Shown: in pieces, positions 1-37,244 of the stretch
Layout of the letters: each line of letters begins with the position of its first letter
Numbering within the stretch: the stretch's first letter is position 1
NCBI GenBank assembly: GCA_017410365.1
Contig: JAFQQY010000049.1
Span: forward strand, 10,443-74,442
Origin: Prevotella sp.
Lineage (GTDB): Bacteria; Bacteroidota; Bacteroidia; Bacteroidales; Bacteroidaceae
DNA: 64,000 nucleotides
Direction: 5' to 3'
Notes under the pieces: model-generated
Database searches by the model: none
Seen by the model: only the letters and a program-made list of their open reading frames with translations
Told to the model about the DNA's origin: nothing
Program-made: the position numbers and the translations under genes

Positions 1-3000
1 TATGCGTCCTGACAAGTCGTAGACCGCGCCGTTGTGGCTGTGGTTCTGACTGGTGGAGACCGATAATATATTGGTAGTGCCCAAGGCATAGAGCTGGAAA
101 TAGTCAACACGGAATGTGCCTGTCTCGCCACTGGTGTCGTAGGAACCGTCAGGGCGCTGGTTGCTGGTACGTATGCCGATGCTCACGTCACCGTCGGTTG
201 TCGTGGTGAAATCTACCGTCATGTTCTGCAGTGTGTTGTAGTCGCTTGTCCCCACATGTCCGGCAAAGCTGTTGTTCTCGTTGTCTTTGAATACGCTTGC
301 CTTGTAGTCGGTCTGTGCGCCGAAATACGCCACGTTGTTGTCGGCAAACAGCCTCAGGGTGCCTATGTAGTCTTTCTTGGCCCCCAGACGGCATGTCAGC
401 CTGTAGCTGCCGGCAGGGAGGTTCTTGATGGTCTGGAAGAATTCAAAGTCGGTGGGCATGGGCTTGTTCCAGAACCAGCATGAGTTGGAACCGTGCATAT
501 TGGCCCCCGTGCCGTTGATGCCCTTCGAGTTGCCGGGGAACTCCTGGTTAGTTTGCCATCCATAGGGCACGCCTCGCACCGTGCCGCCCCCCGTGTTTAC
601 TACGCCCTCTGCGGCCAGCTCAAAGTCAGCATTGACAACGTACTGGTTGGTAAGGCTGTTCCCATTGGGCTGGTCGATGGTTATCTCTTGCAGTGCCAGA
701 CCGGGGTCCATGAAGTATATGCGCAGCTTCACCTCGCCCGCTTCGGCTGCTGTATAGGCTATGCTCTTGCCCGTTGCCCATCCTCGCAGCACGTTCTGTT
801 TCCAGTTGGCAGAGTTGGCGCTGGTGGCGATGCTGTTGATCACGGGATTGGCATCGTGTCCCAGCAACTCTGTGGCGTAGCGCAGCGTGCCTCCGGCATG
901 CACGGGGAAGGTGGGCAGCAGGCGCAGGGTGACCACATTCTCGCCAGCCTTCACAGGCAGCACGTATTCGGCATAAGGCGCATCGGCAGCTCGGGTGTAG
1001 GACTTCATGTCCATGGGCCACACGGCGACGGCCTCTTGCTGCATACCCAGCCCCTGTAGCTTGCGCAGCGTGCTGCTGGCTGTCACGTAGGCACTGGCTG
1101 CAATGGTCATCTGGCTATCGGCCGACGACATGCTCTCTACGGGGCTGATGTTGGTCTGGGTGGCCACCGTGGGCATTTGGAATGCTGGCTGACTGCGGGG
1201 CGATGCGCTCATGATGCCGTCCCATTTGCCGTGCGCAATGTTTTTGTTGTAGATGGTCGTCAGCCGTTGTATCTCGTTGTAGGCCTCCCTGGCCTCGTCA
1301 GCATACTGCAGTGCCTGCGCGGCGTGGCCCAAGCGTGCCTCGCTCATGCTTTGCAAGGCCCGCAGATGCTTCACGTTCATCAGGTAGGCTCCCCTCACGG
1401 GATATTCTATGAGTTGGAAATAGGCATCGCTAAGTTCTGGGCGGATACTCGGCTTCAAGGCTTCGACCTGCTTGGCAATGGTGTTGTAGGCCGCAAGGCG
1501 TGCTTCCATCTCCTCGTTGCTGTAGTCGACGAACATCACGTGCTCAGGCTTGCCGCCAGCCGCCAGTCTGTAGTATTCCTTCTTCACTTCGGCCAGGCCG
1601 TCGGCCACCTCCTCGCCAAAGTTCTCGGCTGCCCAGTGGCGGTTCCATTGGTTGGCATTCTCTGGGTTCCAGGCATCGATGTCCCACGCCAGGTCCATGC
1701 AGAACTGCAACTCTGCCTCGGCAGGTTTGATGTCGCCCACGTTGATGATCCACAGCCGCTGTATGCCCTGCTCGTAGCCGCGGGTGAGCTCGTAGCTGAT
1801 TTGCGCGGGGCCTATGCTGGAGAGCCACAGATAGTCTTGCGGTGCACCGTAGTAGGACAGATGGTAGTAGATGCCATGACTGCCCGCCCGTTGCTGCTCG
1901 GTCTCGGTGGGCATCTGGCGGATGAATCCATGATTGTCGTCGACCCATGTGAGGGTGACATCGTCGGGCACGTTCATACCCGTGTTGTAGGCATCGAGCA
2001 CCTCTTTGTAGGGGATGAAGGTCTGCGGCACCTGCGTCACGTCTTCGTTAACGATGCTGCGGATGAGGCTGCGCTGGAAGGCGATAATCTCCTGCAGTCC
2101 GGCTGCGATGTTGGCGGCACCGCTGTAGCCCTGTATGCCCCCGTCGTGGACGCCGCGCATGCCCAGGGTGTACATCACGTCCTGGTCTTTCGACTCTTCA
2201 ACCCTGGTGCGCCAGTACTGCTGCACGGCAGTCCTGTTGGTGGCATAGTTGTAGGATGACCCGCTGGCGGTCCACTCGCCCACGTTGTTGCGCAGCATCG
2301 GCTCGCAGTGGCTCGACCCCAGCACGATGTCGTACTGGGCGGCCAGCTGATGATTCTCATCGATGGTCCAGAAGGCTCGGCTCACCTTGTGCATGGCCGG
2401 CCACAGGATGTTGGCACGCAGGCGCAGCAGCAACTCGAAGACACGCTCGTAAGTGCGTGGGCCGATATTGTGGATGTTGGTGTCCATCTTGGTGCTGGCC
2501 CAGGGCTGCAGCCCCCAGTCTTCGTCGTTGATGAATATTCCGCGGAAGCGAACAGAAGGCTCCTTCGACGCAAAGTTGTCGGCAGCCGTGAAGTAGAGTT
2601 GGTCGTGATGAGCGGGAACGACATCGGCCCACCACACCCAAGGCGACACACCGATGAGACGCGACAGATGGAACACACCGTAGGCCGTGCCGCGGGGCGT
2701 GCTGCCTGCTATGACCAGGGCGCGGGGGATGCTGTCGCCAATGTTCTCGACATATTGCAGGGTGTAGGCCTCCCACTTCCCCTCGATGGCCGAGCAGTCC
2801 ACTTTTCCGCTATTCGCGAGTTGGTCGACGATGGCCGACTGACCGAGCGTGCCGATGATGATGGGGTAGCGCAGTGCTGCTGCCGTTGGCTTCACTTCAG
2901 GCTTGCGCCCAGTGACGAGGCGGATGTCAGCTGCCAAGGCCTTGGCAGCCACTCCTACCACGGGATGGTCGTTGGTGGCATCTGTCACGATGTCGGCCAC

Positions 3001-3840
3001 GATGGGGCCTCCCACGATGGGGAACCCTTCGCCCAGGGGGAGCGATTGCAGGTAGTCGATGTAGGCTTGCTCGGCTGCCTTCAGGACGGTCAATGATGCT
3101 GCATAGCTCTCTGCTGTTCCGTTCTCATCGTCGAGTGCTGCCTGGGCCGCTATGACGGCTTCGTGCGAGGGACCCATCAGCAGTCGCGCCTGCTCTATCT
3201 CGGCCAGCAGCTCATAATAGACGGCGGGCAGCGGAGCCGACGGTTGTTCAAAGGCTAACGCACGCAGTGTGAAGCGGTAGCCATTGAGCTTTCCAGGGTA
3301 GCTGAGCTGGAAGAAATAGTAGATGTGGTTGGCATCGACGTCGTAGCTCCACGATGTGGCAGAAGCGTTGTAGGGTGTGACCTCCGCAGCGAGGATGGTT
3401 TCGGGGGCATCCTTGCTGACCGTTGCGAAGACCAGCTGCTGTGCGACATTGGCCGAGGGCTTGCCGCTGATGGTCACTGTGCCCGCAAGGCTTGGTTCTA
3501 TCTTCAGAAAACAGCCTCTGGTGGGCAGGGTGCCGAAGGGAGCTGCTTCGGTGAACGTGGTAATCAGGGTTTCTGCCGTGCCGCCGGTGGATGGCATCTG
3601 CGAGGGAAGCAAACCAGTGTTGCCAGCATGCCATGTCCAGTTGTTGCCGACATCGGAGGCAGCACCCAGCGTCACCTTAACCCCGTGGAGAGTGACGGTG
3701 GAACCCATGTCGCAGCCATCGGCAGCGGTGGCCGTCCACGTCGTCTGCGAGGTGCTGCCAAACTGAACAATGGCAGCAAACAGTGTGGTGGAACTGGCAA
3801 GCACCGACAGCGCAAAAAGAAAAAGTCTGATTGGTTTCAT
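1..3840 (-). CDS. Secreted multidomain GH115 alpha-glucuronidase, 3' end off window: signal peptide, domain X, helical linker, GH115, GH115_C, CBM-like jelly roll, T9SS-like tail
   Basis: Hand translation from ATG at 3840 (MKPIRLFLFALSVLASSTTLFA) stays in frame to base 1. GH115 motifs LVIAGSTPRGTAYGVFHLSRLIGVSPWVWWADV, PSVRFRGIFINDEDWGLQPWA, YERVFELLLRLRANILWPAMH, LRIYFMDPGLALQEI. Ends ...GAVYDLSGRI. Absent from the ORF track because there is no stop in the window. Confidence 0.9.
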   Translation of the reverse strand, partial: MKPIRLFLFALSVLASSTTLFAAIVQFGSTSQTTWTATAADGCDMGSTVTLHGVKVTLGAASDVGNNWTWHAGNTGLLPSQMPSTGGTAETLITTFTEAAPFGTLPTRGCFLKIEPSLAGTVTISGKPSANVAQQLVFATVSKDAPETILAAEVTPYNASATSWSYDVDANHIYYFFQLSYPGKLNGYRFTLRALAFEQPSAPLPAVYYELLAEIEQARLLMGPSHEAVIAAQAALDDENGTAESYAASLTVLKAAEQAYIDYLQSLPLGEGFPIVGGPIVADIVTDATNDHPVVGVAAKALAADIRLVTGRKPEVKPTAAALRYPIIIGTLGQSAIVDQLANSGKVDCSAIEGKWEAYTLQYVENIGDSIPRALVIAGSTPRGTAYGVFHLSRLIGVSPWVWWADVVPAHHDQLYFTAADNFASKEPSVRFRGIFINDEDWGLQPWASTKMDTNIHNIGPRTYERVFELLLRLRANILWPAMHKVSRAFWTIDENHQLAAQYDIVLGSSHCEPMLRNNVGEWTASGSSYNYATNRTAVQQYWRTRVEESKDQDVMYTLGMRGVHDGGIQGYSGAANIAAGLQEIIAFQRSLIRSIVNEDVTQVPQTFIPYKEVLDAYNTGMNVPDDVTLTWVDDNHGFIRQMPTETEQQRAGSHGIYYHLSYYGAPQDYLWLSSIGPAQISYELTRGYEQGIQRLWIINVGDIKPAEAELQFCMDLAWDIDAWNPENANQWNRHWAAENFGEEVADGLAEVKKEYYRLAAGGKPEHVMFVDYSNEEMEARLAAYNTIAKQVEALKPSIRPELSDAYFQLIEYPVRGAYLMNVKHLRALQSMSEARLGHAAQALQYADEAREAYNEIQRLTTIYNKNIAHGKWDGIMSASPRSQPAFQMPTVATQTNISPVESMSSADSQMTIAASAYVTASSTLRKLQGLGMQQEAVAVWPMDMKSYTRAADAPYAEYVLPVKAGENVVTLRLLPTFPVHAGGTLRYATELLGHDANPVINSIATSANSANWKQNVLRGWATGKSIAYTAAEAGEVKLRIYFMDPGLALQEITIDQPNGNSLTNQYVVNADFELAAEGVVNTGGGTVRGVPYGWQTNQEFPGNSKGINGTGANMHGSNSCWFWNKPMPTDFEFFQTIKNLPAGSYRLTCRLGAKKDYIGTLRLFADNNVAYFGAQTDYKASVFKDNENNSFAGHVGTSDYNTLQNMTVDFTTTTDGDVSIGIRTSNQRPDGSYDTSGETGTFRVDYFQLYALGTTNILSVSTSQNHSHNGAVYDLSGRI

Positions 3841-3856
3841 TGAAAGGGAGGAGTAG

Positions 3857-3962
3857 CCCCTCCCCCCGCCCCCCCCCTGGGGGGAGCATATAGTTCTGCC
3901 ATTAGCTTTCTGATAGCAGGTCTATATCAACTCCTCTCCCTTGGGGAGGGGCTGGGGGTGGG
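3857..3962. repeat. GC-rich REP/MITE-like palindromic element
   Basis: Outer arms ccctccccccgcccc / ggggctgggggtggg, core ctcccttggggag, inner imperfect hairpin atatag..ctgc / gcag..ctatat; intergenic. Confidence 0.65.
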
Positions 3963-3968
3963 TGTTGG

Positions 3969-6900
3969 TTATTTCACATATACTTTCTTGACGCTGCCAT
4001 CGGACGACACGATAATGTTCAATCCGCGACGCATCTTGTTCTGGCGAGTGCCGCTGATGCTGTAGATGCCAACGGGGAGGATGACCGACGGCTGTACGTT
4101 GGTGATGCCGGTGCTCTGCTCTTGGATGATGCGCTTCGACTCTTCACCCTCGTAGGCGAGATAGATGTTGAAGATGCCGGCACGGGGAACGTCGTTGACG
4201 ATACGTGTGCGAACGAAGACGGGCGTGGCACCTTCGTAGCTGCGCACGAACTTGCAGTAGAGCCGGCGCGCGTCGGGCAATGCGATAGGCTCGCCTATCT
4301 GTGTCCATTCAGCACCAGCGCCATTGCTGGCTGCAACTTCAACTACCAGACGGGCAGCCAGTTCGGCCGAGGGCGCGACGACTGGTTCGTCTGAGCCGCC
4401 CTCGATGGCCTCGAAGGTAAAGCCGCGAAGCGTGAAGCGATAGGCATTGAGTTTTTCGGGATATGCCAGCTGGAAGAAGACGTAGGCATGGTCGGCGTCG
4501 ACCTCATAGCTCCACTCCGTGACGCTGTTGTCCCAAGGCGTGATAGAGGCGGCAAGGATGCTCGTCGGGTTGTTCTTGTCGAGCGTGACGAACACCAATG
4601 GCTGGTCGGCGCTGGCCGAGGCCTTGCCCTTGATGGTGATGACGCCCGCCTTCGTGGGTTCAATCCTGAAGGATGCGCCGTGGGTGGGAAGGGTTCCAAA
4701 AGGCTCCTCCTCGGAGAATTCGGTAATGAGCGTCTCGGCGGTACCATCGGCAGATGGCATCTGCGAGGGCAGCAATCCGGCATTTCCTGCATGCCATGAC
4801 CATGTGACGTCAGCATCATCGGGCGAGCCCAGCGTGACGACGACACCGTTGAGGGTGATGGTGGAGCCGTTGTTGCAGGCGTCGGCCGCTGTGGCAGCCC
4901 ATTCCGACACCGACGTGTCGCCAAAGCCTATGTTGCCATTCTCGTTGACCATGTAGGCCACCACGTCGAAGGGGCCGGCAAAGGCCTGCGTGCTCTGTAT
5001 CATGGCATTGGCTGGATGCTGTGTGTTCCAGTCGTGAAGGTTTATCAGGCCGCTGCTGATGGGCAGATAGGCATCTTCGTCCTCGACGGTCATCGGGTTG
5101 AACGAACCGCTGGCGTCGTCGCCATAGTTTAAGGCCGGGGTGATGTTCTCCCAGGCGATGCGCTGCCCACGTGAGCGAACGCTCCATCCATTGCCGAAGT
5201 CAACCACCTCTTCCTGGCCCACGTTGTCCATGGCGGTGCCTCCCCACGAGAAGTAGTAGCCGGCGTTGCCTGTCTGCGTGTCAGGATTGGTCTGGCTGTA
5301 GTACTCTTCCTGATTGGCATCCATCTTCGACAAGACGTCGACGCGCACTCGTGGATTCGTCACCACGATCTCTGCCGAGCCCACCCTTGAGTTGAGATGT
5401 TCGGGGCAGGTCTGGAAGGCATAGATGGTGCGGCCGCTGGTGAAGGTGATGGGCCCCGTGTAGCGGGTGCTCTTCCCCGTGGTGTTGTCACCCTTGTAGT
5501 TGTAGTAGATGGTGGCCTCGTCTAGGTCGGAGCTGATGGTGACGACGGTCTGTCCGTCGCGGCGCTCCATGCTGAACGTGGGCGGCGGGCACACTTGCTG
5601 TATGTCGATGTAGCGCTCTGCCACATCGCTCAGCAGATAGCCTTCGCCACGCGCCACGGCCATGACGGTCGTCTCTCTGTCTACGGTGAAGGGCGCTGTG
5701 TAGCGGGTGCTCTCCTCGGTGGGCGTCGTACCGTCGAGCGTGTAGAATATTTCGGCTTCAGGGGCGGCATCGGCAATGCTGACAATGGTCTGCTGATAGT
5801 CGTACTCCAGCGCGAAGGTGGGCAGCGGAGCCTTGGTGGCAGGCTGCTTCGTGCCGTTCATCATGGCTATGGCGTGGGTGATGATCTCGGGAGTAACGGC
5901 ATCGGCCAGCGTCTGCTGTGTGTAGGGAATGTAGAGGTAGCCGTTGCGCGAGAGGCTATGGCTGTGAATGGCCACCACATCTGCGTTGTTGTAGGCTACT
6001 GCCAGTATGGGGTCGTTGGCAAAGATTCCGCTCAGGTGCAGGCCGGGGAAGGTAGAGTAGGTGCTGACCTCCAGCACGTAGGTAGGCTCTTCAGCATCGG
6101 GGTCCTCGATGAGCGACAGGTTCCTGAACAGGGGATGGTTAGGATTGGTGGCTGTGGCAAACTGAATGCCTGCGTCCACCACCTCGCCATAGCCCCACTT
6201 CTCATAAATATGAGGATTCAGGTTGAGCACCGGCAGGTAAGGATGCACCTCCTTCAGCGAGGCTATGGCCTCGTCGTTGGTCACGGTAGAGCTGATGGTG
6301 ATGACCTCATAGTCGGCAAAGTCATCGACGGTGAAAGCCTTGTTGGCCTCGATGGGTGTCACATTGTTGCTTTTGTCGCGGGTAATCACTTGGTAGGCCA
6401 GGTCGGCGTTCAGGTCGCCATTGTAGAGGAATCCCACATTGCGCTGGTCGACGGGGGGCGGTGCTTCGCCGGTAGCCTCGAAGGCCACGCCACGGAAGGT
6501 GAAACGATAGGCGGTGAGCTGACCGGGATACGACTGTTGGAAGAAGTAATAGTCGTGCTCGGTGTCCACTTCGTAAGTCCACTCGGTCACGTTGTTGTCC
6601 CATGGTGTGATGTTGGCTTCAACAATGGTCTGGTCATCCTTGAAGCAGGTGACGAAGATTAGCGGCTGTTCTGCGTTGGCCGATGCCTTTCCGTGGAACG
6701 TGATGTTTCCGGGGCGGCTGGGCTGAATCTTGAAGAAGGCGCCATGGGTGGGCAGCTCGCCGAACGGCTCAACGTCAGAAAACGTTGTGATGAGCGATTC
6801 AACGGTGCCTTCGGTGGAGGGCATCTGAGAGGATATCAGGCCAGCGTTTCTGGCGTTCCACGTCCAGCTGACCTCAGCGTCTTCTGCCGAGCCCATGGTA

Positions 6901-7067
6901 ACGACTACGCCGTCGAGCACGATGGTTGAGCCATTGCTGCAGCCATCGTCGGCCGTGGCGGTCCATTCTTTGTCTTCCAGACTGCCAAACTGGATTATTT
7001 CGGCATGCAAGCTGGTTGAGCCAGCGAGCCAGGGCAGGGTGATAAGCAATAGTTGGTAGAGTCTCAT
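3969..7067 (-). CDS. Secreted 1032-aa modular protein with two copies of domain X, two Fn3-associated/CHB_HEX_C-like domains and a T9SS-like tail; no catalytic domain recognised
   Basis: Signal peptide; AEIFYTLDGTTPTEESTRYTAPF and ATIYYNYKG..STRYTGPITF motifs; C-terminus GIYSISGTRQNKMRRGLNIIVSSDGSVKKVYVK. Confidence 0.85.
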   Translation of the reverse strand: MRLYQLLLITLPWLAGSTSLHAEIIQFGSLEDKEWTATADDGCSNGSTIVLDGVVVTMGSAEDAEVSWTWNARNAGLISSQMPSTEGTVESLITTFSDVEPFGELPTHGAFFKIQPSRPGNITFHGKASANAEQPLIFVTCFKDDQTIVEANITPWDNNVTEWTYEVDTEHDYYFFQQSYPGQLTAYRFTFRGVAFEATGEAPPPVDQRNVGFLYNGDLNADLAYQVITRDKSNNVTPIEANKAFTVDDFADYEVITISSTVTNDEAIASLKEVHPYLPVLNLNPHIYEKWGYGEVVDAGIQFATATNPNHPLFRNLSLIEDPDAEEPTYVLEVSTYSTFPGLHLSGIFANDPILAVAYNNADVVAIHSHSLSRNGYLYIPYTQQTLADAVTPEIITHAIAMMNGTKQPATKAPLPTFALEYDYQQTIVSIADAAPEAEIFYTLDGTTPTEESTRYTAPFTVDRETTVMAVARGEGYLLSDVAERYIDIQQVCPPPTFSMERRDGQTVVTISSDLDEATIYYNYKGDNTTGKSTRYTGPITFTSGRTIYAFQTCPEHLNSRVGSAEIVVTNPRVRVDVLSKMDANQEEYYSQTNPDTQTGNAGYYFSWGGTAMDNVGQEEVVDFGNGWSVRSRGQRIAWENITPALNYGDDASGSFNPMTVEDEDAYLPISSGLINLHDWNTQHPANAMIQSTQAFAGPFDVVAYMVNENGNIGFGDTSVSEWAATAADACNNGSTITLNGVVVTLGSPDDADVTWSWHAGNAGLLPSQMPSADGTAETLITEFSEEEPFGTLPTHGASFRIEPTKAGVITIKGKASASADQPLVFVTLDKNNPTSILAASITPWDNSVTEWSYEVDADHAYVFFQLAYPEKLNAYRFTLRGFTFEAIEGGSDEPVVAPSAELAARLVVEVAASNGAGAEWTQIGEPIALPDARRLYCKFVRSYEGATPVFVRTRIVNDVPRAGIFNIYLAYEGEESKRIIQEQSTGITNVQPSVILPVGIYSISGTRQNKMRRGLNIIVSSDGSVKKVYVK

Positions 7068-7095
7068 AAGCGTGTGTTGACTTGTTGGGTTTCAA

Positions 7096-7836
7096 TTACT
7101 TTTTGAAGTAGAGTTTTCTGCCGTTGACTATGCGGATGCCGCTCTTGTCGCTGGCACGACGGCCGCTGAGGTCAAAGTAGGAGGCATCAGCAGCTGCGGG
7201 GGATGCATGAAGCATGTTCAGGCCTGTCGACTCATTGTTAGCAACAAAAGAGATGCCGCGAAGCGTGAAGCGGTAGGCAGTGAGCTTGCCGGGATAGCTT
7301 AGCTGGAAGAAGCAATACACATGGTCGGCATCTACGTCGTAGCTCCACTGCGTCACGCTGTTGTCCCATGGGGTAATCTGGGCTGAGAGAATGACGGTCG
7401 GGTCTTCCTTGCTCAGCGTAACAAACACCAGCGGCTGAGCTGTATTGGCCGAGGCCTTGCCGCTGATGGTGATGGTGCCTGCCTTGGTGGGCTCCATCTT
7501 CAGGAAAGCGCCGTGAGAGGGCAGGTGGCCAAAGGGCGCTTCTTCTGAGAATTCGGTGATGAGCGTTTCGGCGGTACCATCGGTAGATGGCATCTGCGAG
7601 GGCAGCAATCCGGCATTTCCTGCATTCCACGACCAAGTGACGCCAGCATCGTCGGGTGAGCCCAGCGTCACTTTAACGCCGTCGAGAGTGACAGTCGAAC
7701 CCATATCGCAGCCGTCATCAGCCGTGGCACTCCATTCCGTCAGTGATTCGCTGCCTAGGTCCACGATGTCAGCTTTCATGTAAGCACTACCTGCCATTAG
7801 AGACAGGGCAATGAGTAAGAGTTTCTTTTTTTTCAT
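7096..7836 (-). CDS. Secreted 246-aa protein: single domain X plus T9SS-like tail
   Basis: Start moved to ATG 7836 (MKKKKLLLIALSLMAGSAYMKA signal peptide); tail SYFDLSGRRASDKSGIRIVNGRKLYFKK. Confidence 0.85.
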   Translation of the reverse strand: MKKKKLLLIALSLMAGSAYMKADIVDLGSESLTEWSATADDGCDMGSTVTLDGVKVTLGSPDDAGVTWSWNAGNAGLLPSQMPSTDGTAETLITEFSEEAPFGHLPSHGAFLKMEPTKAGTITISGKASANTAQPLVFVTLSKEDPTVILSAQITPWDNSVTQWSYDVDADHVYCFFQLSYPGKLTAYRFTLRGISFVANNESTGLNMLHASPAAADASYFDLSGRRASDKSGIRIVNGRKLYFKK

Positions 7837-7889
7837 AAAGCTTAGTTTTTTATAGATTGTTAATAATGATAGTTTTGGCAATGGTGCTG

Positions 7890-7897
7890 CAAATTTA
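7890..7897 (-). promoter_or_regulatory. Bacteroidetes -7 promoter box of the domain-X operon
   Basis: TAAATTTG on the minus strand matches TAnnTTTG, about 55 bp upstream of ATG 7836. Confidence 0.6.
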
Positions 7898-7990
7898 GTG
7901 GTAGTTGGTGATACCTGCCTGACCATAATCGCCAGACCATAACACAAAATGGACAAATGGCGCTAAAATGTCACAAATCAGACAAAAAAC

Positions 7991-8868
7991 TATTGGTGTC
8001 CGCTAAAAGTCTAATGAGCATAAATTATCTTCCGCAATGCCGATAAACAGGCGTTGCGGATTATTTTTTTGAGAAGTAAGCCCCCCTAATCGAAAAGTGC
8101 CGGTTCGTTAGGCTGTGGATTGTCCATTTCAATTATTTTAAGCCAGTCTCTCTCCGGCTGTTCAAAGAAAGTATAGCAGTTGACATAGTACATAAGCATG
8201 ATACGGAACATCGTTGCGAGATTTGAAAAGCTCCAACTTCGCTTAATACGTCTCTGCATGACCATGAGCAGCAGGTTGGCAATGAGCGTTACCCATATTT
8301 GTATATTGATGGCGTTTGCACTCTCCCCATAAAAGTATCTCAATGGAAAATTCTGCTTGAGTTGTTTGAAAAGCAGTTCAATCTCCCAACGTTTGCGTCG
8401 GCTGTCCGAGGAAAGTTCATCCCTGTAAGTGGCATACAGGTCACGGTATACGGCCTCAAACACACACTCCTTGCGGCGGGAGTTTGCATCGGATAAGGTG
8501 GAACGGCGGGGCATCAGGTTGATGCCAAGGTGAGCCAGTTTCCGTGCTTCGGGGAACATCGAGTCCGTAATCTCACGCAAAGAGTCGAAACGCTTGATTA
8601 CCGCATACAGCATAATCACCAAGTGCTGCCATGTATCGAAGTGTTTTACATAGCGTTCACCGCCACTTTCACGGCTGAAACGAAGAATTTTTGACCGGTC
8701 AAGCAAATTTAACAGCTGACCGTACATCGGCTGTCCGATAAAATGTGTACCTTTGTTCATGTTATTGAAGTTTTGTGGTAAAAACAAAGGTAACAAAAAA
8801 GGCTGAATACCAAGCGAGGGATTCAGCCTAATTTTATTACAAGCAAAAAACTTTAGCGGACACCAATA
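7991..8868 (-). mobile_element. Internally deleted IS4-family insertion sequence
   Basis: 17-bp perfect terminal inverted repeats tattggtgtccgctaaa (7991-8007) / tttagcggacaccaata (8852-8868). Flanks acaaaaaac / acaaaaac resemble a target duplication differing by one A. Internal hairpins at about 8031-8069 and 8795-8829. Confidence 0.88.
8086..8760 (-). pseudogene. IS4-family transposase (DUF4372-type N-terminus) with in-frame loss of most of the DDE core
   Basis: MNKGTHFIGQPMYGQLL..RRSTLSDAN N-terminus joined directly at SDSRR/KRWEIELLFKQLKQNF; only 224 aa, and the region carrying the first two catalytic Asp residues is absent. Confidence 0.8.
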
Positions 8869-8922
8869 ACAAAAACAAGGTAAATTTGGTGCGAATAAGA
8901 AAAAAGTAAGTAACTTTGCAAT

Positions 8923-11466
8923 GTGAAAATGTACATACAGCGAAATAGGTCTTTTGTCAGAATCGCCTTCGTGCTACTCTTGATATTGGCCACCACTGGC
9001 AAGGCTGCCACATTGCCGCCGCTGCGCTATCAGTCGTTCAGCAACCTGAAGAGCGAAACGCAGACGCTGGTCGTGAAGGCCATCGTTCAGGACAGTAGTG
9101 GCATGATGTGGTTCGTCGACAAGAAAGCACTCTCAGCATGGGATGGCTATAACCTGCACCGCTATACGCATCCTGAGCAGTCCGACATGGGGCCGCCCCG
9201 TTGCGCTTTGGTAGTCGGTGGCAGCATCTTAGTGGGCCACGAGCATGGTCTGCTTCAGTTCAATCTGAACACCCGCAGCTTCCAGCGCGACAGTCTCTAC
9301 GATGACATTGACGTGCGCTGTCTGGTTCAGGTGGGCACTGACGTATGGGCAGGCACCAGCCGCGGACTCTTCTGCAACGGGCGCTACGTGCGTCTGAAAG
9401 AAGTGGAGAACGTGTGCGCGCTGGCCGCTGTGGGCGACTCGCTGCTATATGTGGGTCAGCAGAGCGGCCTGTCGTGCTACTCCATACCCACCGGTCGCCT
9501 GCACGTGCTGCACACCCTCATCCCCGGCGAGGGAGCCAGGGCTTCGTCGACGGTTATCTCGGCATTGCTCTGGCAACCCTCCGACAGTACCCTCTGGGTG
9601 GGCACCGACGCAGGTTTGGGCACCCTGGACCAGTTGGAACAGGATAGGCTGCAGTTCGACCTGCCCATTGTGAAATGTCTGGCTTTCGATACTGAAGGCA
9701 ATATCTTGGCGGGCACCGACGATGGGCTGTATGTGATGTATCATCGTCAACGGCTGTGGCACCTGAGCCACGATGCGCTCAACGATGCCAAGACGATAGC
9801 CAGCAATGTGGTGTGGACGCTTTGCAGCGATGTTGGCGGCAACCTCTGGGTGGGCACATCCAACGGCGTGTCGATGTCGCCGCGCAGCATCTTCCTCCAC
9901 ACCTACCCCCTGCCTGCCATCACAGCCTCGCGCGAGGGCAACCAGATGCGGTTCATCTTTCAAGACTCCGACTCTACGCTATGGCTGGGCGGCATACATG
10001 GGCTTATAGCTGTCGAGGGTCTGGACACCGACCACCAGAGTTGCCGATGGTACAAGATGAACGACAAGCAGTGGCCCATTCCCCACAACAGCATACGCTG
10101 CATGTTCGAAGACTCAGACCACAGAGTGTGGGTAGGTATTGACGGTGCCTTGCTGCTCTACAACCGCAGGTCGCAACAGTTTAGACCGCTACACATCGAT
10201 GGCGATCGTCGCAACTGGGTGTACGACATACAGGAGACCACCGATGGTAAGCTGCGCGTAACAACCTATCAGGCTACCTATACCGTCAGCCCCGACCGCA
10301 TCTCGGCCGACGGAGTTGTGGCAGTGCTGCAGCGGGAGAACGCCCAGCCATATACGCCGCAAGGATGCTCAGCAGTGACACCGGGCGGCACCTGGACCGT
10401 CACCGACGAGGGACTGCGCATCACCGATGCACGGCAGCAGGTGCTTATAAGTTTCAGCATGGTCGACAGCTACACCTCCGTTTACTATAATCCAGTGAGC
10501 CAGACCGTTTGGCTGGGCGGCATCGACAAGTTTGCCGCCGTCAGGGCGGGCGCCCTGCACAGCCAGCAGCAAGCCGCCACACCCGTGGTGACCAATGTCG
10601 AGGTGATGGGGCAGGGCTATTGCGATGCCCTGCAGCTGAACCAGCACGACCTGCAACTGAACCAGTCGCAGAACTGTCTGCTGTTCTATCTGAGCAATTA
10701 TGAATATGGCACAGAGAAGACAGCCCGCTTTGCCTTCCGCGTAGAGGGCCTGCAGGAAGAGTGGGTACAGCTGCCGGCAGGCAGCAGCACGTTGTTGCTG
10801 TCGGGGTTGCAGTCTGGTAGCTACACCCTCTTCCTGAGTGACGCCCGGCAGCAAGAGGCAGCCTACAGCCTCCACTTTCGCATCCTGCCCCCGTGGTACC
10901 GCTCACGATTGGCATGGATGCTCTATGCACTGTTCGTGGTTGTGCTGTTTACGCTCGTTGGCCTATATGTCAGGAGCCGTTGCATCCTGCGAAGGGAGCG
11001 CCAGGAGAAAGAACTGATATTGCAGAACGCCAGAAGCAAGGAGGAGCAGCTCAGCGAGGACAAGGCTATGCTCGAACAGGAGCTGCGGCTGTCGATGCTG
11101 GCCACCTCTGGCAACGACACCCAGCTGTCGCAAGACGACCAGTTGCTTTTGCGTGTCACCCATATTATCGAGGAAAACATCGACAACTCCGACCTCTCTG
11201 TCGACATGCTCAGCCAGCTCAGCGGCATCAGTACCAAGCAGCTCTATCGTAAAATCAAGCAGCTCACGGGCAGAACTGCCGTGGGCTACATCCGCCACCT
11301 GCGGCTGCAGAAGGCGGCACGCCTGCTCGCCAGCAAAGAGAACTTCTCCACCAAGGAGGTAATGTATCTCACAGGATTCCAGAATGCGTCCTATTTCACG
11401 CGCTGCTTCCAAGAGGAGTTCGGGGCAACACCATCGAACTACGCCAAGATGGGCGGCGGCGACTGA
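8923..11466 (+). CDS. Membrane-spanning AraC regulator: beta-propeller sensor, Y_Y_Y domain, TM helix, AraC HTH; HTCS-like but lacking kinase and receiver domains
   Basis: Reg_prop repeats (QDSSGMMWF, LWVGT, FEDSDHRVWVG), FAFRVEGLQEEW..LQSGSYTL, TM after PPWYRS, AraC KQLYRKIKQLTG..GFQNASYFTRCFQEEFGATPSNY. -7 box TAACTTTG at 8911-8918; true start may be ATG 8929. Confidence 0.88.
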   Translation: MKMYIQRNRSFVRIAFVLLLILATTGKAATLPPLRYQSFSNLKSETQTLVVKAIVQDSSGMMWFVDKKALSAWDGYNLHRYTHPEQSDMGPPRCALVVGGSILVGHEHGLLQFNLNTRSFQRDSLYDDIDVRCLVQVGTDVWAGTSRGLFCNGRYVRLKEVENVCALAAVGDSLLYVGQQSGLSCYSIPTGRLHVLHTLIPGEGARASSTVISALLWQPSDSTLWVGTDAGLGTLDQLEQDRLQFDLPIVKCLAFDTEGNILAGTDDGLYVMYHRQRLWHLSHDALNDAKTIASNVVWTLCSDVGGNLWVGTSNGVSMSPRSIFLHTYPLPAITASREGNQMRFIFQDSDSTLWLGGIHGLIAVEGLDTDHQSCRWYKMNDKQWPIPHNSIRCMFEDSDHRVWVGIDGALLLYNRRSQQFRPLHIDGDRRNWVYDIQETTDGKLRVTTYQATYTVSPDRISADGVVAVLQRENAQPYTPQGCSAVTPGGTWTVTDEGLRITDARQQVLISFSMVDSYTSVYYNPVSQTVWLGGIDKFAAVRAGALHSQQQAATPVVTNVEVMGQGYCDALQLNQHDLQLNQSQNCLLFYLSNYEYGTEKTARFAFRVEGLQEEWVQLPAGSSTLLLSGLQSGSYTLFLSDARQQEAAYSLHFRILPPWYRSRLAWMLYALFVVVLFTLVGLYVRSRCILRRERQEKELILQNARSKEEQLSEDKAMLEQELRLSMLATSGNDTQLSQDDQLLLRVTHIIEENIDNSDLSVDMLSQLSGISTKQLYRKIKQLTGRTAVGYIRHLRLQKAARLLASKENFSTKEVMYLTGFQNASYFTRCFQEEFGATPSNYAKMGGGD

Positions 11467-27163: not shown

Positions 27164-29977
27164 ATGAAAAGACAGATAGCAACAATGTTTCTGGCTGCCG
27201 CCGCTTTCTTGGCTCAGGCACAGACAAATGTAGAAACCCAGCGTCAGTATATCAGCGGAACAGGCTGTGACGATATGGTGGAGTGGGACTTCATGTGTAC
27301 AGGTGGCCGCAACAGTGGCAAGTGGACAAAGATAGGAGTGCCATCGTGCTGGGAACTGCAAGGGTTTGGAACCTATCAGTACGGCATGCGCTTCTATGGC
27401 AAGGCCACTCCCGAGGGCATTGCCGACGAAAAGGGACTCTATAAGACCGAGTTCACGCTGCCTGCAGAGTGGGAAGGCAGAGAGATATATCTGGTGTTCG
27501 AGGGTTCTATGACCGACACCTATGCCACCATCAACGGTCGCAAGGCAGGAGTGGGACTACATCAGGGCGGTTTCAACCGCTTCATGCACAACGTTTCCGA
27601 CCGCGTGTTCTTCGGAAAGAAAAAGAACCGACTAGAGGTAGAGGTGAGCAAGGAGAGTGCTGACCCTCAGGTGAACATGGCTGAGCGCCGTGCTGACTTC
27701 TGGAACTTCGGCGGCATCTTCCGTCCGGTGTTCATCGTGTCAAAACCGGCGCAGAACATCCATCGCGTGGCCATCGATGCCGGCATGGACGGACGATTCA
27801 AGGCCGACTGCTATCTCAACCGTGCCGTACAGGGAGCAAAGGTGAAGGTGGATATTCTCGACAGCAAAGGCAAGAAAGCCGGTAGCAGTGAGTTTGCCGT
27901 GGCATCCGATATTGCAAAGGTTGACTTCTCTGTTAATAGTCCTGCCCTCTGGACAGCCGAGACGCCTAATCTCTATACTGCCGTGTTCACACTGCTCGAT
28001 CAGAGCGGAAAAACATTGCATGTGGAGCGTCAGAAGTTCGGTTTCCGTACAATCGAAATCCGCCAGAACGATGGTGTATATATTAACGGCAGCAAGGTAA
28101 TTTTCAAAGGTGTCAACCGACATAGTTTCCGTCCAGAGACTGGTCGCACGCTGAGCAAGCAGAAGAATATCGAAGACGTGCTGCTCATCAAGAGCATGAA
28201 CATGAACTCGGTGCGCCTTGGCCACTATGCCGCCGACCCAGAGTTTCTTGAGGCATGCGACTCGCTCGGTCTGTATGTAGAGAACGAGTTGCTGGGCTGG
28301 CACAAGGCTGTGCCTACCATCGTTGGTCAGAAGTTGGTAGAGTCGCTTGTTACCCGCGACGTGAATCATCCTTCAGTAATATTCTGGAGTAATGGTAATG
28401 AGGGAGGCTTCAACTACGAGCTTGAGCCATTCTTCTATAAGTTCGACCCGCAGAAGCGCGTGGTGCTCTATCCTTGGGCCAACCGAAACGGCATAGAGAC
28501 AAAGCACTACCGTTCATACGGTGAGACGCAGGAGTATATGCGCCAACCGGAGATATTCATGCCTACGGAGTTTCTGCATGGTCTGTATGACGGCGGACAT
28601 GGTGCCGGACTGGCTGACTATTGGGAGATGATGATGGCGAACCCACGTTGTGCAGGCGGATTCCTTTGGGACCTCGCCGACCAGGGTGTGGTGCGCACCG
28701 ACATGAACAATATCGTTGACTGTATGGGTAATTTCGGTGCCGACGGCATCGTTGGTCCTCACTTCGAGAAGGAAGGCTCATTCTATACCATTAAGGAGAT
28801 TTGGAGTCCGGTGATTTGTCAACTCGTCAACTCGTCAACTTGTCAACTAAACATAAAGAACCGCTACGACTTCCTCAACCTGAACACATGCAAGTTGCGC
28901 TACCGCTATCTCGACACTCCTGCATTGGGCAACAGTGAGGTGAAGACGTTGGGCGAGGGCACTGTGCAGATGCCTGACGTGAAACCATGGCAGGACGGAA
29001 CGATGACAATCCCAGCCAATGATAATGCCAAGGTACTGGAGGTGACAGTTATCGACAAGAACGGCACGGAGGTGATGACATGGAGCTGGCCTATCAAGTG
29101 CATCAGCAAGACAGCCTATGGGGAGAGCATTGCCGATGTGAAGGCAGCCATGACCGAAAGCGACAGCAAGATTGAGGTAAAGGTGGGCAACCATACCTAT
29201 ACATTCTCTAAGGAGAACGGTTATCTGCAGGGTGTGAACGTTGGCGGCAAGCATATATCACTGGAGAACGGACCGCGACTGCTAGCCGTAAGACGCAGCG
29301 ACCGTAGTTTCGACCAGTTCTACAATCACGATGACAAGGAGGCAGAAAAGAAGAAGACACAATACTCGCTCTATGCTGACCAGGGCAAGTTCGATAAGTT
29401 TACCACCGATGGTGCTACACTGACTGCCAACTACAAGCACGGCTCTCTGCAGCAGGTTAAGTGGACATTTGCTCAGGATGGAAGTGTGAAGATGGATTAT
29501 AAGTACAACTTCGGCGGTATCGTCGATGAGATGGGACTGATGTTCGACTATCCAGAAAGCAAGGTGAAGAGCAAGTCATGGGTGGGCAACGGTCCTTACC
29601 GCGTATGGCAGAACCGTCTGCACGGTCCGCAGTTCGGTTACTGGCATAACGACTACAACGACCCGATACCGGGCGAAACTTTCGAATATCCAGAGTTCAA
29701 GGGATTCTTTTCCATCGTAGAGTGGATGCAGATAGAGACAGAAGAAGGCAAGATAGGCATCTCTGGTGTTGGTTGCAAGAACTATATCGGAGTATATCAG
29801 CCACGCGATGGTCGTGACCATTTACTATATGAGTTGCCGGAGAGTGGCATCTCTATCCTGAAGGTGATACCGGCAGTGAGAAACAAGGTGAACACCACCG
29901 ACCTGAACGGTCCGTCGGCATTGCCATACCGTGCTTTCGGCGACCATACAGGAAGTGTAAAACTAACATTCGAGTAA
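27164..29977 (+). CDS. GH2 glycoside hydrolase
   Basis: Signal peptide; GGIFRPV, LWTAETPNLY, KGVNRH, WSNGNEG (acid/base), PTEFLHG (nucleophile). Confidence 0.93.
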   Translation: MKRQIATMFLAAAAFLAQAQTNVETQRQYISGTGCDDMVEWDFMCTGGRNSGKWTKIGVPSCWELQGFGTYQYGMRFYGKATPEGIADEKGLYKTEFTLPAEWEGREIYLVFEGSMTDTYATINGRKAGVGLHQGGFNRFMHNVSDRVFFGKKKNRLEVEVSKESADPQVNMAERRADFWNFGGIFRPVFIVSKPAQNIHRVAIDAGMDGRFKADCYLNRAVQGAKVKVDILDSKGKKAGSSEFAVASDIAKVDFSVNSPALWTAETPNLYTAVFTLLDQSGKTLHVERQKFGFRTIEIRQNDGVYINGSKVIFKGVNRHSFRPETGRTLSKQKNIEDVLLIKSMNMNSVRLGHYAADPEFLEACDSLGLYVENELLGWHKAVPTIVGQKLVESLVTRDVNHPSVIFWSNGNEGGFNYELEPFFYKFDPQKRVVLYPWANRNGIETKHYRSYGETQEYMRQPEIFMPTEFLHGLYDGGHGAGLADYWEMMMANPRCAGGFLWDLADQGVVRTDMNNIVDCMGNFGADGIVGPHFEKEGSFYTIKEIWSPVICQLVNSSTCQLNIKNRYDFLNLNTCKLRYRYLDTPALGNSEVKTLGEGTVQMPDVKPWQDGTMTIPANDNAKVLEVTVIDKNGTEVMTWSWPIKCISKTAYGESIADVKAAMTESDSKIEVKVGNHTYTFSKENGYLQGVNVGGKHISLENGPRLLAVRRSDRSFDQFYNHDDKEAEKKKTQYSLYADQGKFDKFTTDGATLTANYKHGSLQQVKWTFAQDGSVKMDYKYNFGGIVDEMGLMFDYPESKVKSKSWVGNGPYRVWQNRLHGPQFGYWHNDYNDPIPGETFEYPEFKGFFSIVEWMQIETEEGKIGISGVGCKNYIGVYQPRDGRDHLLYELPESGISILKVIPAVRNKVNTTDLNGPSALPYRAFGDHTGSVKLTFE

Positions 29978-32900
29978 ATGAAACGCAGTGCAACCCTTTT
30001 AGTATTGTTGTGCGTGGCGCTGGGAGCGATGGCGCAGAACGAGGCAAAGCCATGGACATTCTGGTACTGGATGTACGGAGCTGTGAGCAAGGAAGGCATC
30101 AAGGCCGATGTTAAGGCTATGAAGGATGCCGGACTGGGCGGTTTCTATCTGATGCCTATCCGCGGAACAGGTGAGAAACCTGAGTATGGCGGCAAGGCGC
30201 AGCAGCTCACTCCTGAGTTCTGGGAGGTGGTGGACTATGCCATGCAGCAAGCCGACTCGCTCGGGCTGGAAGTCGGCATACATGTGTGCGACGGATTTGC
30301 CTTAGCTGGAGGTCCGTGGATAAAGCCGGAGGAATCGATGCAGCACGTAGTGTTTACAGACACTATCGTTGCAGGTGGAAAGATAAATATGAAGCTCCGA
30401 CAGCCAACAACACGAGAGAATTACTATAAGGATATTGCATGCTATGCTATGCCTATGAAGGACTATAAGCCTATAGGCGAAGCTAAAATAACCTTCTCTG
30501 AAAGTTTTACTTGCGATGAAAAAGGTGTCTATAGAGCTAACAATCCGGGATGGATACAGTTGGAATATAAAGAACCGACAACGGTTAGAAGCATCGAAAT
30601 TGTGCCAAGCGGAAACAATCTGCAGTCGCAGCGCTTACTGGTGCAGGCTAGCATCGATGGTAAGACATTCAGCAATGTGCGCCAGTTGACACCACCACGT
30701 CAAGGGTGGCAGAACACAGGATTCAACTATACATATTCTATTCCGGCAACAACAGCAAAGTATTTCCGTTTCCAATGGACTCCAGAGGGAACAGAACCGG
30801 GTGCAGAGGATTTGGATGCGGCTAAATGGAAAGCAAATCTGAAACTGAAGAAGATTAATATGTATGCCTATTCACAGATAAGCGGATGGGAAGGCAAGTC
30901 GGGAGCTGTGTGGCGTATAGCAGAAGAGACGCCGGCTGGCGATATTGCCGCTGCCGACTGCTATAAGATTAAGGACATGATAATGCTGAAGGTGGATGCT
31001 GACGGTAGAGTGAGCACCACTCTGCCTGAAGGCATATGGCGAATACTACGCATAGGCCATACTTCTACTGGACACACTAACGCTACTGCAGGTGGCGGTA
31101 AGGGACTGGAATGTGACAAGTTTTCAAGAGCTGCTGTCAACAAGCAGATAGACAACTGGTTTGTCAAGTTTACCCATCGCAAGTATTCTAAGGTAGTGAA
31201 ATACTTGCACGTGGACAGTTGGGAGTGTGGTTCGCAGAACTGGAACGTCACCTTCGCTAAGGAGTTTAAGCGCCGTCGTGGTTACGACATCATTCCGTAT
31301 CTGCCGATAATGGCTGGTGTGCCAGTAGAGAGCATTGCAAAGAGTGAGGCTGTGCTTCGCGATGTGCGCCGAACAATTAACGACCTGATTAACGATGTGT
31401 TTTTCAGTACTGTTGGCCATAGAGCAAAGAACTTGGGCATGAAATTCTCTTCAGAGAGCGTTGCACCTACTATGATAAGCGACGGCATAGAGCATTATAA
31501 ATATGTTGACCTGCCAATGGGCGAGTACTGGCTCAACTCGCCGACACATGACAAGCCTAACGACATGCTCGATGCCATCAGCGGAGCACATACATATGGC
31601 AAGAATATTGTGCAGGCTGAAGGATTTACAGAGGTGAGAGGTGTATGGGATGAGCATCCTGCAATGATAAAGCCGCTGCTCGACCGCAACTTCGCCATAG
31701 GAATGAATAGATTGTTCTTCCATGTTAATACTCATAATCCATGGTTGGACCGCAAACCAGGAATGACACTCGACGGCATCGGCTTGTTCTTTCAGCGCGA
31801 TCAGATATGGATGCCGGAATCAAAGGCTTTTGTTGACTACATCACCCGTTGTCAGACTTTGTTGCAGAAAGGTCGGCCCGTTGCAGATATAGCAGTGTAC
31901 ACAGGCGATGAGATGCCAAATCGTTCGGTGTTGCCTGAGCGCCTTGTTTCAATGTTGCCAGGACTGTTTGGAGAGAAGCGTGTGAAATCGGAGGCCGCAC
32001 GTATGGCCAATGTTGGACAACCTATGGAAGAGAGTCCGGTGGGTGTCAGACATTCAGCCGGAATAGCAGACCCTAAGGATTGGATTAATCCGCTGAATGG
32101 CTATCAGTACGACTCCTTCAATCCTGATGTTCTGCTCAATTCGGCATCTGTAAAGAACAATAATATAGTTCTGCCAAATGGTGCTACATACAGAGTGCTG
32201 GTAGTGCCGCAAGACAAGATGGTGAGCGATGAGGCGAGAAGAAAGATAGATAATCTGAGAAGAAACGGAGTTGCTGTTATAGATAGTCCGTTTGCTGCCG
32301 GAACTCTTGCACAGTATGGAGTGGAGCGTGACGTAATGCTTCCGGAAGGAATAGCATACACGCATCGTACTGCAAATGATATGGAGATATATTTCATAGC
32401 CAATCAGAAAGAAGAGGCACGTTCGTTTAGGGCATCTTTCAGAGTTGGTGGCATGACTCCGGTTGTTTATCTGCCAGTAACAGACGAGTATTTGAAGGCA
32501 GATGCCAAGGCTGCAGGTACTCGAACAGAAGTTAATATAACATTGCCGGCATGCGGTTCTGCATTTGTATTGTTCTACAAGGGCAATATTCCAGATGATA
32601 TTCAGAAACAGGCAGAAGTAGACAGCCATTTGTTGGCGAAGAACGAACCTCTGAAGATAAAGGAATGGAATATTACGTTCAGAGAGAATAATGTGCAGAT
32701 GGTTAGCGATGTTCTTTTCGATTGGAGTAAGTCGGACAACGACAAGATAAAGTTCTTCAGCGGACATGCATCATACACAACAACATTCAAGCACAAGGGC
32801 AAACCAAAGGGCAAGGCTTTGCTTACATTGGGCGAGGTGAACAATATCGCTCATGTGTGGATCAATGGTGTTGACTGTGGTATAGTGTGGACTGCGCCTT

Positions 32901-33103: not shown

Positions 33104-33112
33104 AAAATAAAT

Positions 33113-34528: not shown

Positions 34529-34539
34529 GGGAGACCTTT

Positions 34540-34609
34540 TAGGAAAACCTAGGAGAACTTAGGAACGCCTAGGAGAACCTAGGAAATCCTAGGAAGCCCT
34601 AGGAAAACT
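34540..34609. repeat. Decamer tandem repeat, TAGGA core, 7 units
   Basis: taggaaaacc taggagaact taggaacgcc taggagaacc taggaaatcc taggaagccc taggaaaact. Confidence 0.88.
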
Positions 34610-34631
34610 TACACTCCTTAAAAAAAGAATT

Positions 34632-37199: not shown

Positions 37200-37244
37200 A
37201 AGAGTCTCGAACCTGTTGGCGGTTACTAACAAAGAATCTATGTA

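Follow-up and report, generated by a model that had tools for sequence, protein, structure and literature searches.

A domain of about 175 residues shared by three adjacent signal-peptide-bearing proteins of Prevotella sp.: a candidate carbohydrate-binding targeting module with a predicted β-jelly-roll fold

We analysed a 64,000-nucleotide stretch of a Prevotella sp. genome (assembly GCA_017410365.1; positions 10443-74442 of contig C49, JAFQQY010000049.1), which we refer to as the window. At its start lie three adjacent minus-strand genes that share a domain of about 175 residues. They encode a GH115 α-glucuronidase, a 1032-residue protein and a small solo protein (Table 1). A sequence-only reading of this DNA had proposed that the domain occurs four times in these genes and is common to an enzyme, a large protein taken to be non-catalytic and a solo protein. 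Our analysis bears this out, with no catalytic domain recognised in the large protein. The four copies (A to D) lie at the coordinates that had been given and can be aligned over 175 columns with a single one-residue gap. Relative to the GH115 copy, identity is 56, 61 and 69% for the other three, and in 76 of the 175 columns all four have the same residue. All motifs listed earlier fall within these columns, namely W-x-ATA-x-D-x-C, GST, W-x-W, SQMPS, LIT-x-F, PFG-x-LP, GK-x-SA, W-x-Y-x-VD, H-x-Y-x-FFQ-xx-YP and YRFT-x-R. A hidden Markov model (HMM) built from the four copies matches each of them with E values of 1e-102 to 1e-108, which excludes a chance resemblance. The whole genome (3.28 Mb, 55 contigs, 89% complete) contains only these four copies.

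The first copy in each protein had also been placed at about residue 24, right after the signal peptide. This holds for the GH115 and the 1032-residue protein, and for the solo protein if the ATG at 7836 is its start. The solo open reading frame (ORF) spans 7096-7956, with an upstream TTG start at 7956. The ATG at 7836 gives a protein of 246 residues, matching the 94%-identical relative P0004 (246 residues, domain at 24-198). As read from their sequences, the signal peptides of the three proteins are typical and carry no lipoprotein cysteine. In the enzyme, Pfam places GH115 at residues 426-767 (E 1.6e-127), together with GH115_C. Past GH115_C, residues ~1090-1222 (window 1-600, minus strand) give a weak DUF5013 match (E 0.014), and a similar stretch was seen by eye, unaligned, in the relative P0058; this region may be another candidate binding module. 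The 1032-residue protein consists, in order, of a signal peptide, copy B, ~225 residues, two CHB_HEX_C/Fn3_assoc repeats, ~160 residues, copy C, ~100 residues and a C-terminal tail. The two repeats are its only Pfam matches, and about residues 198-423, 553-711 and 887-985 are without a Pfam family. Read by eye, the flanks of copy C might be a single domain with copy C inserted into it. An AlphaFold2 (AF2) model of this whole protein from a 10-row alignment was too poor (pLDDT 51.8, pTM 0.27) and was not used.

Table 1. Features of the domain-bearing genes and their surroundings (window coordinates, except where a locus is named)
Feature	Position	Strand	Description
GH115 α-glucuronidase gene	1..3840	-	1302 residues in the genome; last 22 codons precede window base 1
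Gene for the 1032-residue protein	3969..7067	-	two CHB_HEX_C/Fn3_assoc repeats at residues 424-552
Solo gene	7096..7836	-	246 residues from ATG 7836: signal peptide, domain, ~48-residue tail
Domain copy A	3247..3771	-	GH115 residues 24-198
Domain copy B	6477..6998	-	residues 24-197 of the 1032-residue protein
Domain copy C	4410..4931	-	residues 712-886 of the 1032-residue protein
Domain copy D	7243..7767	-	entire mature body of the solo protein
C-terminal tail, solo protein	7102..7239	-	tail HMM E 1e-15, at the very C-terminus
C-terminal tail, 1032-residue protein	3972..4124	-	tail HMM E 3.9e-14
C-terminal tail start, GH115	1..78	-	tail HMM E 2.7e-11 on the genome ORF; remainder outside the window
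Feruloyl-esterase-like gene	L005:7447-8871	-	474 residues; first ~265 like the 505-residue class
Transposase fragment, DUF4372	8086..8796	-	236-residue ORF, between the solo gene and the regulator
Regulator	8923..11466	+	847 residues; Reg_prop repeats and AraC-type helix-turn-helix (Pfam); divergent from the cluster

The domain matches no named family by sequence, in agreement with the earlier reading. Searches of the three proteins against Pfam and NCBIfam at E<=1 returned nothing over it. When 38 diverse members were compared with Pfam one by one at the same threshold, no consistent match emerged, the commonest weak one being DUF2846 (5 of 38 members, best E 0.0095). Profiles of 4 and 38 sequences searched against PDB sequences at E<=10 gave noise only and no carbohydrate-binding module (CBM). 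In their sources the relatives are called 'hypothetical protein' or are named after other domains. Titles and abstracts of the literature on GH115, Prevotella, CBM, feruloyl esterase or type IX secretion in rumen Prevotella held no paper on the domain. In the ESM Atlas the domain resembled unnamed clusters (best score 0.95, of low recognition value) and a CBM77 cluster (0.89), and residues 198-423 of the 1032-residue protein scored at most 0.84; these are leads only.

The family is small. A profile search of 1.84 billion representatives at 50% identity found 41 proteins at E<=0.001, of which 32 also pass <=1e-10 and 17 pass <=1e-30, and a word-seeded search of 5.8 billion clusters found 14 solo-length proteins and 45-47 longer ones. 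Among 401 genomes sampled from the same taxonomic family, 16 gave any match and 5, including the present genome, gave a strong match (E<1e-60). One of 24 other genomes in the window's genus carries the domain, as the same four-copy cluster. The named carriers are metagenome-assembled genomes (MAGs) of uncultured Prevotellaceae or Prevotella sp. and of Bacteroidaceae, and the sequencing runs that hold the DNA are animal gut metagenomes. A search for related loci with the 4-row alignment returned 5, plus one spurious Streptomyces match of 28 residues. Weak matches (E 1e-4 to 1e-10) also lie in very large ORFs of other genomes of the taxonomic family; in six of these ORFs Pfam found only Laminin_G_3, outside the matched stretch, and no link to a superfamily. 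Across the domain family W45, P83, G86, Y151 and R166 are invariant, and W12, F153, F154 and Q155 are nearly so. H149 is invariant in the four window copies but is not conserved across the wider family.

The earlier description of the domain as β-rich agrees with its predicted structure. The AF2 model of copy D, built with a 38-row alignment (25-74% identity to the query), is all-β with 13 strands (pLDDT 97.5, pTM 0.93), and the predicted fold is a β-jelly-roll. The top PDB match in Foldseek is 8wc1, the carbohydrate-binding domain of a putative pectate lyase (E 2.3e-5, TM-score 0.45-0.50), followed by the xylan-binding CBM86 (6sgf, E 3.7e-4) and by 8x8h, a second entry for a pectate-lyase CBM. 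The adhesin domain of gingipain K1 (4itc) is found at E 4.2e-4 and TM-score 0.44 (VIA-align Z 5.8); a lectinolysin lectin domain and then CBM6, CBM4, CBM35 and CBM16 come further down. VIA-align, run against 48,161 representative chains, ranks 8x8h_A highest (Z 10.1, root-mean-square deviation (rmsd) 3.2, 126 residues aligned) and 8wc1_A second (Z 9.6). Next are reelin repeats (Z 8.1 and 7.7), and an acyltransferase and CE2 esterases with N-terminal jelly rolls (7.6 and 7.2); the CE2 N-terminal domains in 2waa, 2wao and 3u37 lie at 6.4-7.2. CBM22, CBM15 and CBM4 are found at about Z 6-7, and CBM8 and MAM domains at about 6. By their descriptions, 29 of the best 50 rows considered are CBMs or β-sandwich parts of carbohydrate-active enzymes. 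A second comparison, over Foldseek's top 999 chains, gave the same ranking.

The 8x8h/8wc1 domain is a small β-jelly-roll on a plant-wall-degrading enzyme, as the domain studied here is predicted to be, and the two superimpose with an rmsd of 3.2-3.4 over 126-130 of 175 residues. However, they are 9-10% identical and show no sequence match at E<=10, and the window domain is ~30 residues longer, with a long conserved loop region (residues ~57-88). The match is suggestive rather than proof, and a shared fold does not show a function. A literature search on 8WC1/8X8H or the putative pectate lyase carbohydrate binding domain returned only an unrelated benchmarking paper. Xylan-binding CBMs (CBM86 6sgf, CBM22, CBM4/9, CBM15 and CBM6) share the fold class and are likewise appended to hemicellulases. 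Their similarity to the window domain is generic (Z 6-7, TM-score 0.3-0.45), and their Pfam families match none of the 38 members.

The proteins in which the domain is found provide a second line of evidence. Among 45 longer proteins from the word-seeded search, GH115 is present in 9, of which 5 also carry SGNH. SGNH only is found in 9, pieces of or the whole CHB_HEX_C type in 8, GH127 in 1 and a partial match with an HMA domain in 1. Another 17 have no precomputed family, and ten of these are of a ~505-residue type in which ~270 N-terminal residues are followed by the domain and a tail. The N-terminal 260-275 residues of the ten are 85-91% identical to those of P0048, and the N-terminal part of P0048 matches solved feruloyl esterases (9j07, E 1.9e-8; 8iy8, E 3.7e-7); some sources name members of these clusters poly(3-hydroxybutyrate) depolymerase. 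Further members carry DUF4978 or DUF4859. The usual place of the domain is straight after the signal peptide; other members have it in an internal position, in tandem or near the C-terminus (P0057, P0059-P0061).

The same catalytic cores occur with and without the domain. In the gene cluster of this genome, a feruloyl-esterase-like core (82% identical over 262 residues) is joined to another C-terminal region and lacks the domain. Residues ~266-430 of that protein differ from the 505-residue class, have no assigned family and precede the tail. In alignments with solved GH115s, the window enzyme is covered only from residue ~253-299 onward. Because the esterase core exists without the domain and the solved GH115s begin behind it, the domain appears to be an accessory that comes and goes on conserved cores. 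To judge from the sequences, this is how a targeting module would be expected to behave. As in a CBM, the domain forms a contiguous module within carbohydrate-active enzymes, through its fusions to GH115, SGNH, GH127 and feruloyl-esterase-like proteins. A discrete and autonomous fold is indicated by the prediction, whose pLDDT was obtained for the isolated domain, and by the stand-alone protein.

The sequence-only reading had left the choice between a new CBM and a docking module. The structural neighbours, the fusion partners and the presence and absence of the module on one core favour carbohydrate binding. We therefore infer that the domain is a new CBM-like module with a predicted jelly-roll fold that targets a decorated plant polysaccharide, with a probability of about 0.6. 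In the libraries queried its sequence family has no name; its predicted fold belongs to a known class, and its role is probably of a known kind. In the mechanism we propose, each of the three proteins would be exported via its N-terminal signal peptide, and the short C-terminal tail would likely pass it through a type IX secretion system (T9SS). Both this export route and the resulting surface display are features we infer. The module on the GH115, and in relatives on SGNH esterases, the feruloyl-esterase-like core and GH127, would hold a side-chain-removing enzyme on the decorated polysaccharide and so raise its local concentration at the substrate. The solo protein with one copy, and the 1032-residue protein with two copies and Ig-like spacers, would have no catalytic role and would bind glycans at the cell surface, tethering the substrate, or the cell, to the plant fibre.

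Several observations weigh against a carbohydrate-binding module. Structural similarity is modest: for models that lack a clear match the best Z is typically 7-8, so that the Z of about 10 is only slightly above background, and the values for 8x8h and 8wc1 are only ~2 units over unrelated jelly rolls, at an identity of 9-10%. The same jelly-roll also makes protein-protein contacts, as in reelin (Z 8.1), MAM domains (~6) and gingipain K1 (5.8). The invariant residues may belong to the protein core and not to a surface site. Novelty was judged by Pfam, NCBIfam and PDB, and the domain may belong to a CBM family that has neither a Pfam model nor a structure. The gene context points in two directions with respect to the ligand. 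Finally, TIGR04183 finds 18 places genome-wide at E<=0.01, and none of them is in the three genes.

The docking half of the earlier proposal would make the domain a protein-protein assembly module, whose copies bind each other or a common surface partner and build a multi-enzyme complex on the cell surface. Such a complex would be loosely comparable to what the adhesin domains do in gingipain complexes on T9SS bacteria. The same module in three neighbouring genes that look co-transcribed, including one for a module plus sorting tail, is consistent with assembly, and the scaffold could be the 1032-residue protein, which has two copies and in which no catalytic domain is recognised. The gingipain K1 cleaved-adhesin domain (4itc), MAM domains and reelin jelly rolls are indeed among the structural matches, but the best neighbours are CBMs rather than adhesin or MAM domains, and the cleaved adhesin of gingipains/HagA has no Pfam match at E<=1. 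Pfam finds no cohesin- or dockerin-type family in the three proteins; elsewhere, a single very weak family match, P0092, occurs with a dockerin (E 4.6e-4). In addition, the module is present singly on many different enzymes, no matching receptor domain was identified, and solo-CBM and tandem-CBM proteins would be explained equally well as glycan binders. We consider assembly unlikely, though it is the strongest of the alternatives. An elaborated version, in which the module recognises itself or a partner rather than a sugar and the 1032-residue protein acts as scaffold for the GH115, the esterases and the solo protein in a cellulosome-like, T9SS-displayed debranching machine of Prevotellaceae with a new docking domain, appears slightly less probable again. 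We give the same small weight to a module that binds lignin or phenolic (feruloyl) decorations of the wall, or a surface polymer of the bacterium itself that would retain the enzymes on the cell. Feruloyl- and cinnamoyl-esterase-like partners are frequent, the invariant residues are largely aromatic (W12, W45, Y151, F153 and F154) and nearly all members have a tail of the surface-sorting type. Against this, the module is also fused to GH115 and GH127, which have sugar substrates, its structural neighbours bind glycans, and a second retention module would be needless if the tail already attaches the protein to the surface.

The domain could also be a substrate-presenting or catalytic helper, or a catalytic domain itself. 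CE2 acetyl esterases have an N-terminal jelly-roll followed by SGNH, and the N-terminal domains of CE2 are among the structural neighbours listed above. The order of domain then SGNH has been mapped in P0065, P0066 and the GH115 of the related locus L009, and is not that of the four window copies; both are present, with SGNH at an unmapped position, in P0026, P0031, P0044, P0046, P0054 and P0055; Y151, Q155 and R166 are invariant or nearly so. However, unlike the CE2 domain the window domain is also found alone, in tandem, at the C-terminus, after an esterase core, and on GH115, GH127 and feruloyl-esterase-like proteins. No Pfam model of this kind matches any of the 38 members at E<=1, and the CE2 family was not listed for them in this general scan, in which the CE2 model was not queried by name. 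There is no lyase or hydrolase jelly-roll among the 50 best VIA-align rows, and H149 varies in the wider family. A helper or catalytic role is the least probable of the readings considered. A polysaccharide lyase had been considered from the invariant Y, Q and R and was set aside, with no lyase among the top structural rows and H149 not conserved.

For a CBM-like module, the ligand is a separate question. The glucuronoxylan implied by the sequence-only reading is not secure: the GH115 is nearest to the arabinogalactan-specific BtGH115A, and the sole nearby xylanase lies outside the compositional island described below. The window GH115 matches BtGH115A (5by3) with E 3.8e-162 and 545 bits, compared with 342-403 bits for the other solved GH115 chains. 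Among characterised GH115s, BtGH115A is alone in acting on arabinogalactan instead of xylan (PMC13059095). No solved protein is closer to the catalytic part of the window enzyme; the alignment of BtGH115A with that enzyme starts only at residue 288, and it has no counterpart of the N-terminal module. The neighbouring GH106-like (rhamnosidase-family) gene and the best structural match, to a pectate-lyase domain, fit arabinogalactan or pectic side chains. Grass glucuronoarabinoxylan would suit the feruloyl and acetyl esterases as well as the GH10 nearby. Candidate ligands are therefore glucurono(arabino)xylan and arabinogalactan or pectic side chains decorated with 4-O-methyl-glucuronic acid.

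Nearly all members of the family end in a segment of ~45 residues of the type TGI...Y-D-L-S-G-R-R-V...K-G-I-Y-I-V-N-G-K-K-V-V-I-K. When the genome's 9,765 stop-to-stop ORFs were searched at E<=0.01 with an HMM of 40 such tails, 76 matched, 75 of them with a match that finishes no more than 20 residues before the stop. Among the tail-bearing ORFs are the three domain-bearing genes, together with the GH10 and the feruloyl-esterase-like gene. TIGR04183 at E<=1 has no match in the 1032-residue and solo proteins, nor in the GH115 scanned minus its last 22 residues, and 5 of its 18 places in the genome coincide with ORFs found by the tail HMM. The gene for the SprA translocon is present. Judged from these sequences, the tail is likely a short variant of the T9SS sorting domain that TIGR04183 largely misses.

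A related arrangement is known from the rumen. The Bacteroidetes member Candidatus Paraporphyromonas polyenzymogenes has T9SS-linked multimodular carbohydrate-active enzymes with hypothetical regions, one of which bound Avicel, a form of cellulose (PMC5831590). The likeness is that both are multimodular secreted enzymes of plant-wall breakdown, lie outside classical SusC/D loci, and have parts without annotation as well as C-terminal sorting domains, which in the window proteins are likely. The rumen enzymes are cellulases and xylanases, with C-terminal domains that match TIGR04183 (PMC5831590). By comparison, the window cluster would act in side-chain removal, has a ~45-residue tail that TIGR04183 misses and carries a different module family.

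To trace the history of the copies, 82 complete domain copies were placed in a maximum-likelihood tree, computed by quick search with SH-aLRT as the only measure of support. Copy B falls in a 5-row clade with four orthologous N-terminal copies (SH-aLRT 100), and copy C in an 8-row clade of orthologous copies (98). The solo copy D pairs with P0004 (99), and copy A pairs with P0033, to which it is 96% identical (100). The copies thus group by position across genomes, which indicates that each has long been retained. The solo proteins are not monophyletic, and the N-terminal copies of P0022 and P0023 group with esterase-type copies. DNA identity among the four copies is 64-76%. The four copies are old paralogues kept in place amid repeated shuffling, rather than recent homogenised duplicates.

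Contigs from other sequencing runs show joints or breaks within these copies. Within window 6868-7726, contigs from RNA-library runs of three studies, 95-99% alike to the window, contain in-frame joints. Two of them connect the solo copy with the homologous site in copy B (6868 to 7638; 6938 to 7708); they skip 769 nucleotides and would delete the solo gene. The third, from 7197 to 7726, skips 528 nucleotides, almost exactly the solo domain. Four DNA runs of a 99%-identical strain have no joints. The joints could reflect true recombination between copies in related strains, or they could be artefacts of assembly. Contigs from DNA runs of four studies all break at 4752-4792 and 7596-7614, which are homologous sites in copies C and D, 2833 nucleotides apart. 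The shared breaks point to an exact stretch common to the two copies that is long enough to split the assembly graph.

The three genes are part of a minus-strand run of six. The solo gene, the gene for the 1032-residue protein and the GH115 are followed by a GDSL/SGNH esterase, the feruloyl-esterase-like gene and a fusion of a GH106-like part to a cinnamoyl/feruloyl-esterase-like part. The GH106-like part is nearest to 5mqm (E 5.9e-112), and its esterase part is nearest to Est1E and cinnamoyl esterases. Pfam finds no HisKA, HATPase or receiver domain in the divergent 847-residue regulator. The transposase fragment next to the regulator is not part of the system; one contig of the RNA-library run X16 joins 7984 to 8871 and lacks it. 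Beyond the cluster, on the opposite strand, is a GH10 into which a CBM4_9 is inserted. The stretch examined showed no SusC/SusD pair. RNA-library contigs from four runs of four studies, at least 95% alike, contain parts of all three genes, which is not proof of transcription. DNA contigs from four further studies have the same arrangement, mostly at 99% identity.

Much of this arrangement recurs in the five related loci (L006-L010). By position and ORF length, a divergent ORF of 832-849 residues lies upstream of the cluster in all five, and the order of solo gene, 1032-residue protein gene, GH115, an ORF of 464-466 residues and one of 474-493 residues is kept in L006-L008. In this genome the last two correspond to the GDSL esterase and the feruloyl-esterase-like gene. 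L009 and L010 differ by two unnamed ORFs (545 and 466 residues) ahead of the solo gene. Pfam was applied to the L009 genes and to the GH106-like and esterase ORF of L006: the regulator ORF of L009 has the same families as the window regulator, the GH115 of L009 carries SGNH and a GH106-like gene follows it.

The cluster also stands out by composition. Seven genes at C49:4173-21908 (L005; window 1-11466 plus ~6.3 kb before it) have a GC content of 0.55-0.61, compared with a genome mean of 0.444 (standard deviation 0.044, 3-kb windows), and this island holds four of the five 3-kb windows with the highest GC. The GH10 (0.485) and the transposase fragment (0.453) are outside the island by GC. The composition of the island and the patchy distribution of the domain suggest that the whole cluster was acquired horizontally. 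Elsewhere in the window, a second glycan-degrading run (27164-41651, plus strand) comprises GH2, GH106, a SASA-type acetylesterase, GH2 and a full hybrid two-component regulator; the domain is absent from this run, whose GC is normal. Its regulator (37245-41651) has HisKA, HATPase and receiver domains, unlike the 847-residue regulator.

If glycan binding is true, the domain would found a new CBM family that is limited, as far as searched, to gut Prevotellaceae and Bacteroidaceae. The module would be specific to enzymes that remove uronic-acid, acyl and arabinosyl decorations from plant polysaccharides, and it could be of use in targeting debranching enzymes in feed or biomass applications. The small size of the family and the confident model make it a cheap target, since a single domain of 175 residues is involved. 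The solo and tandem proteins would be the first example of T9SS-displayed non-catalytic glycan-binding proteins encoded beside their enzymes, and would be the functional counterparts of Sus-like surface glycan-binding proteins.

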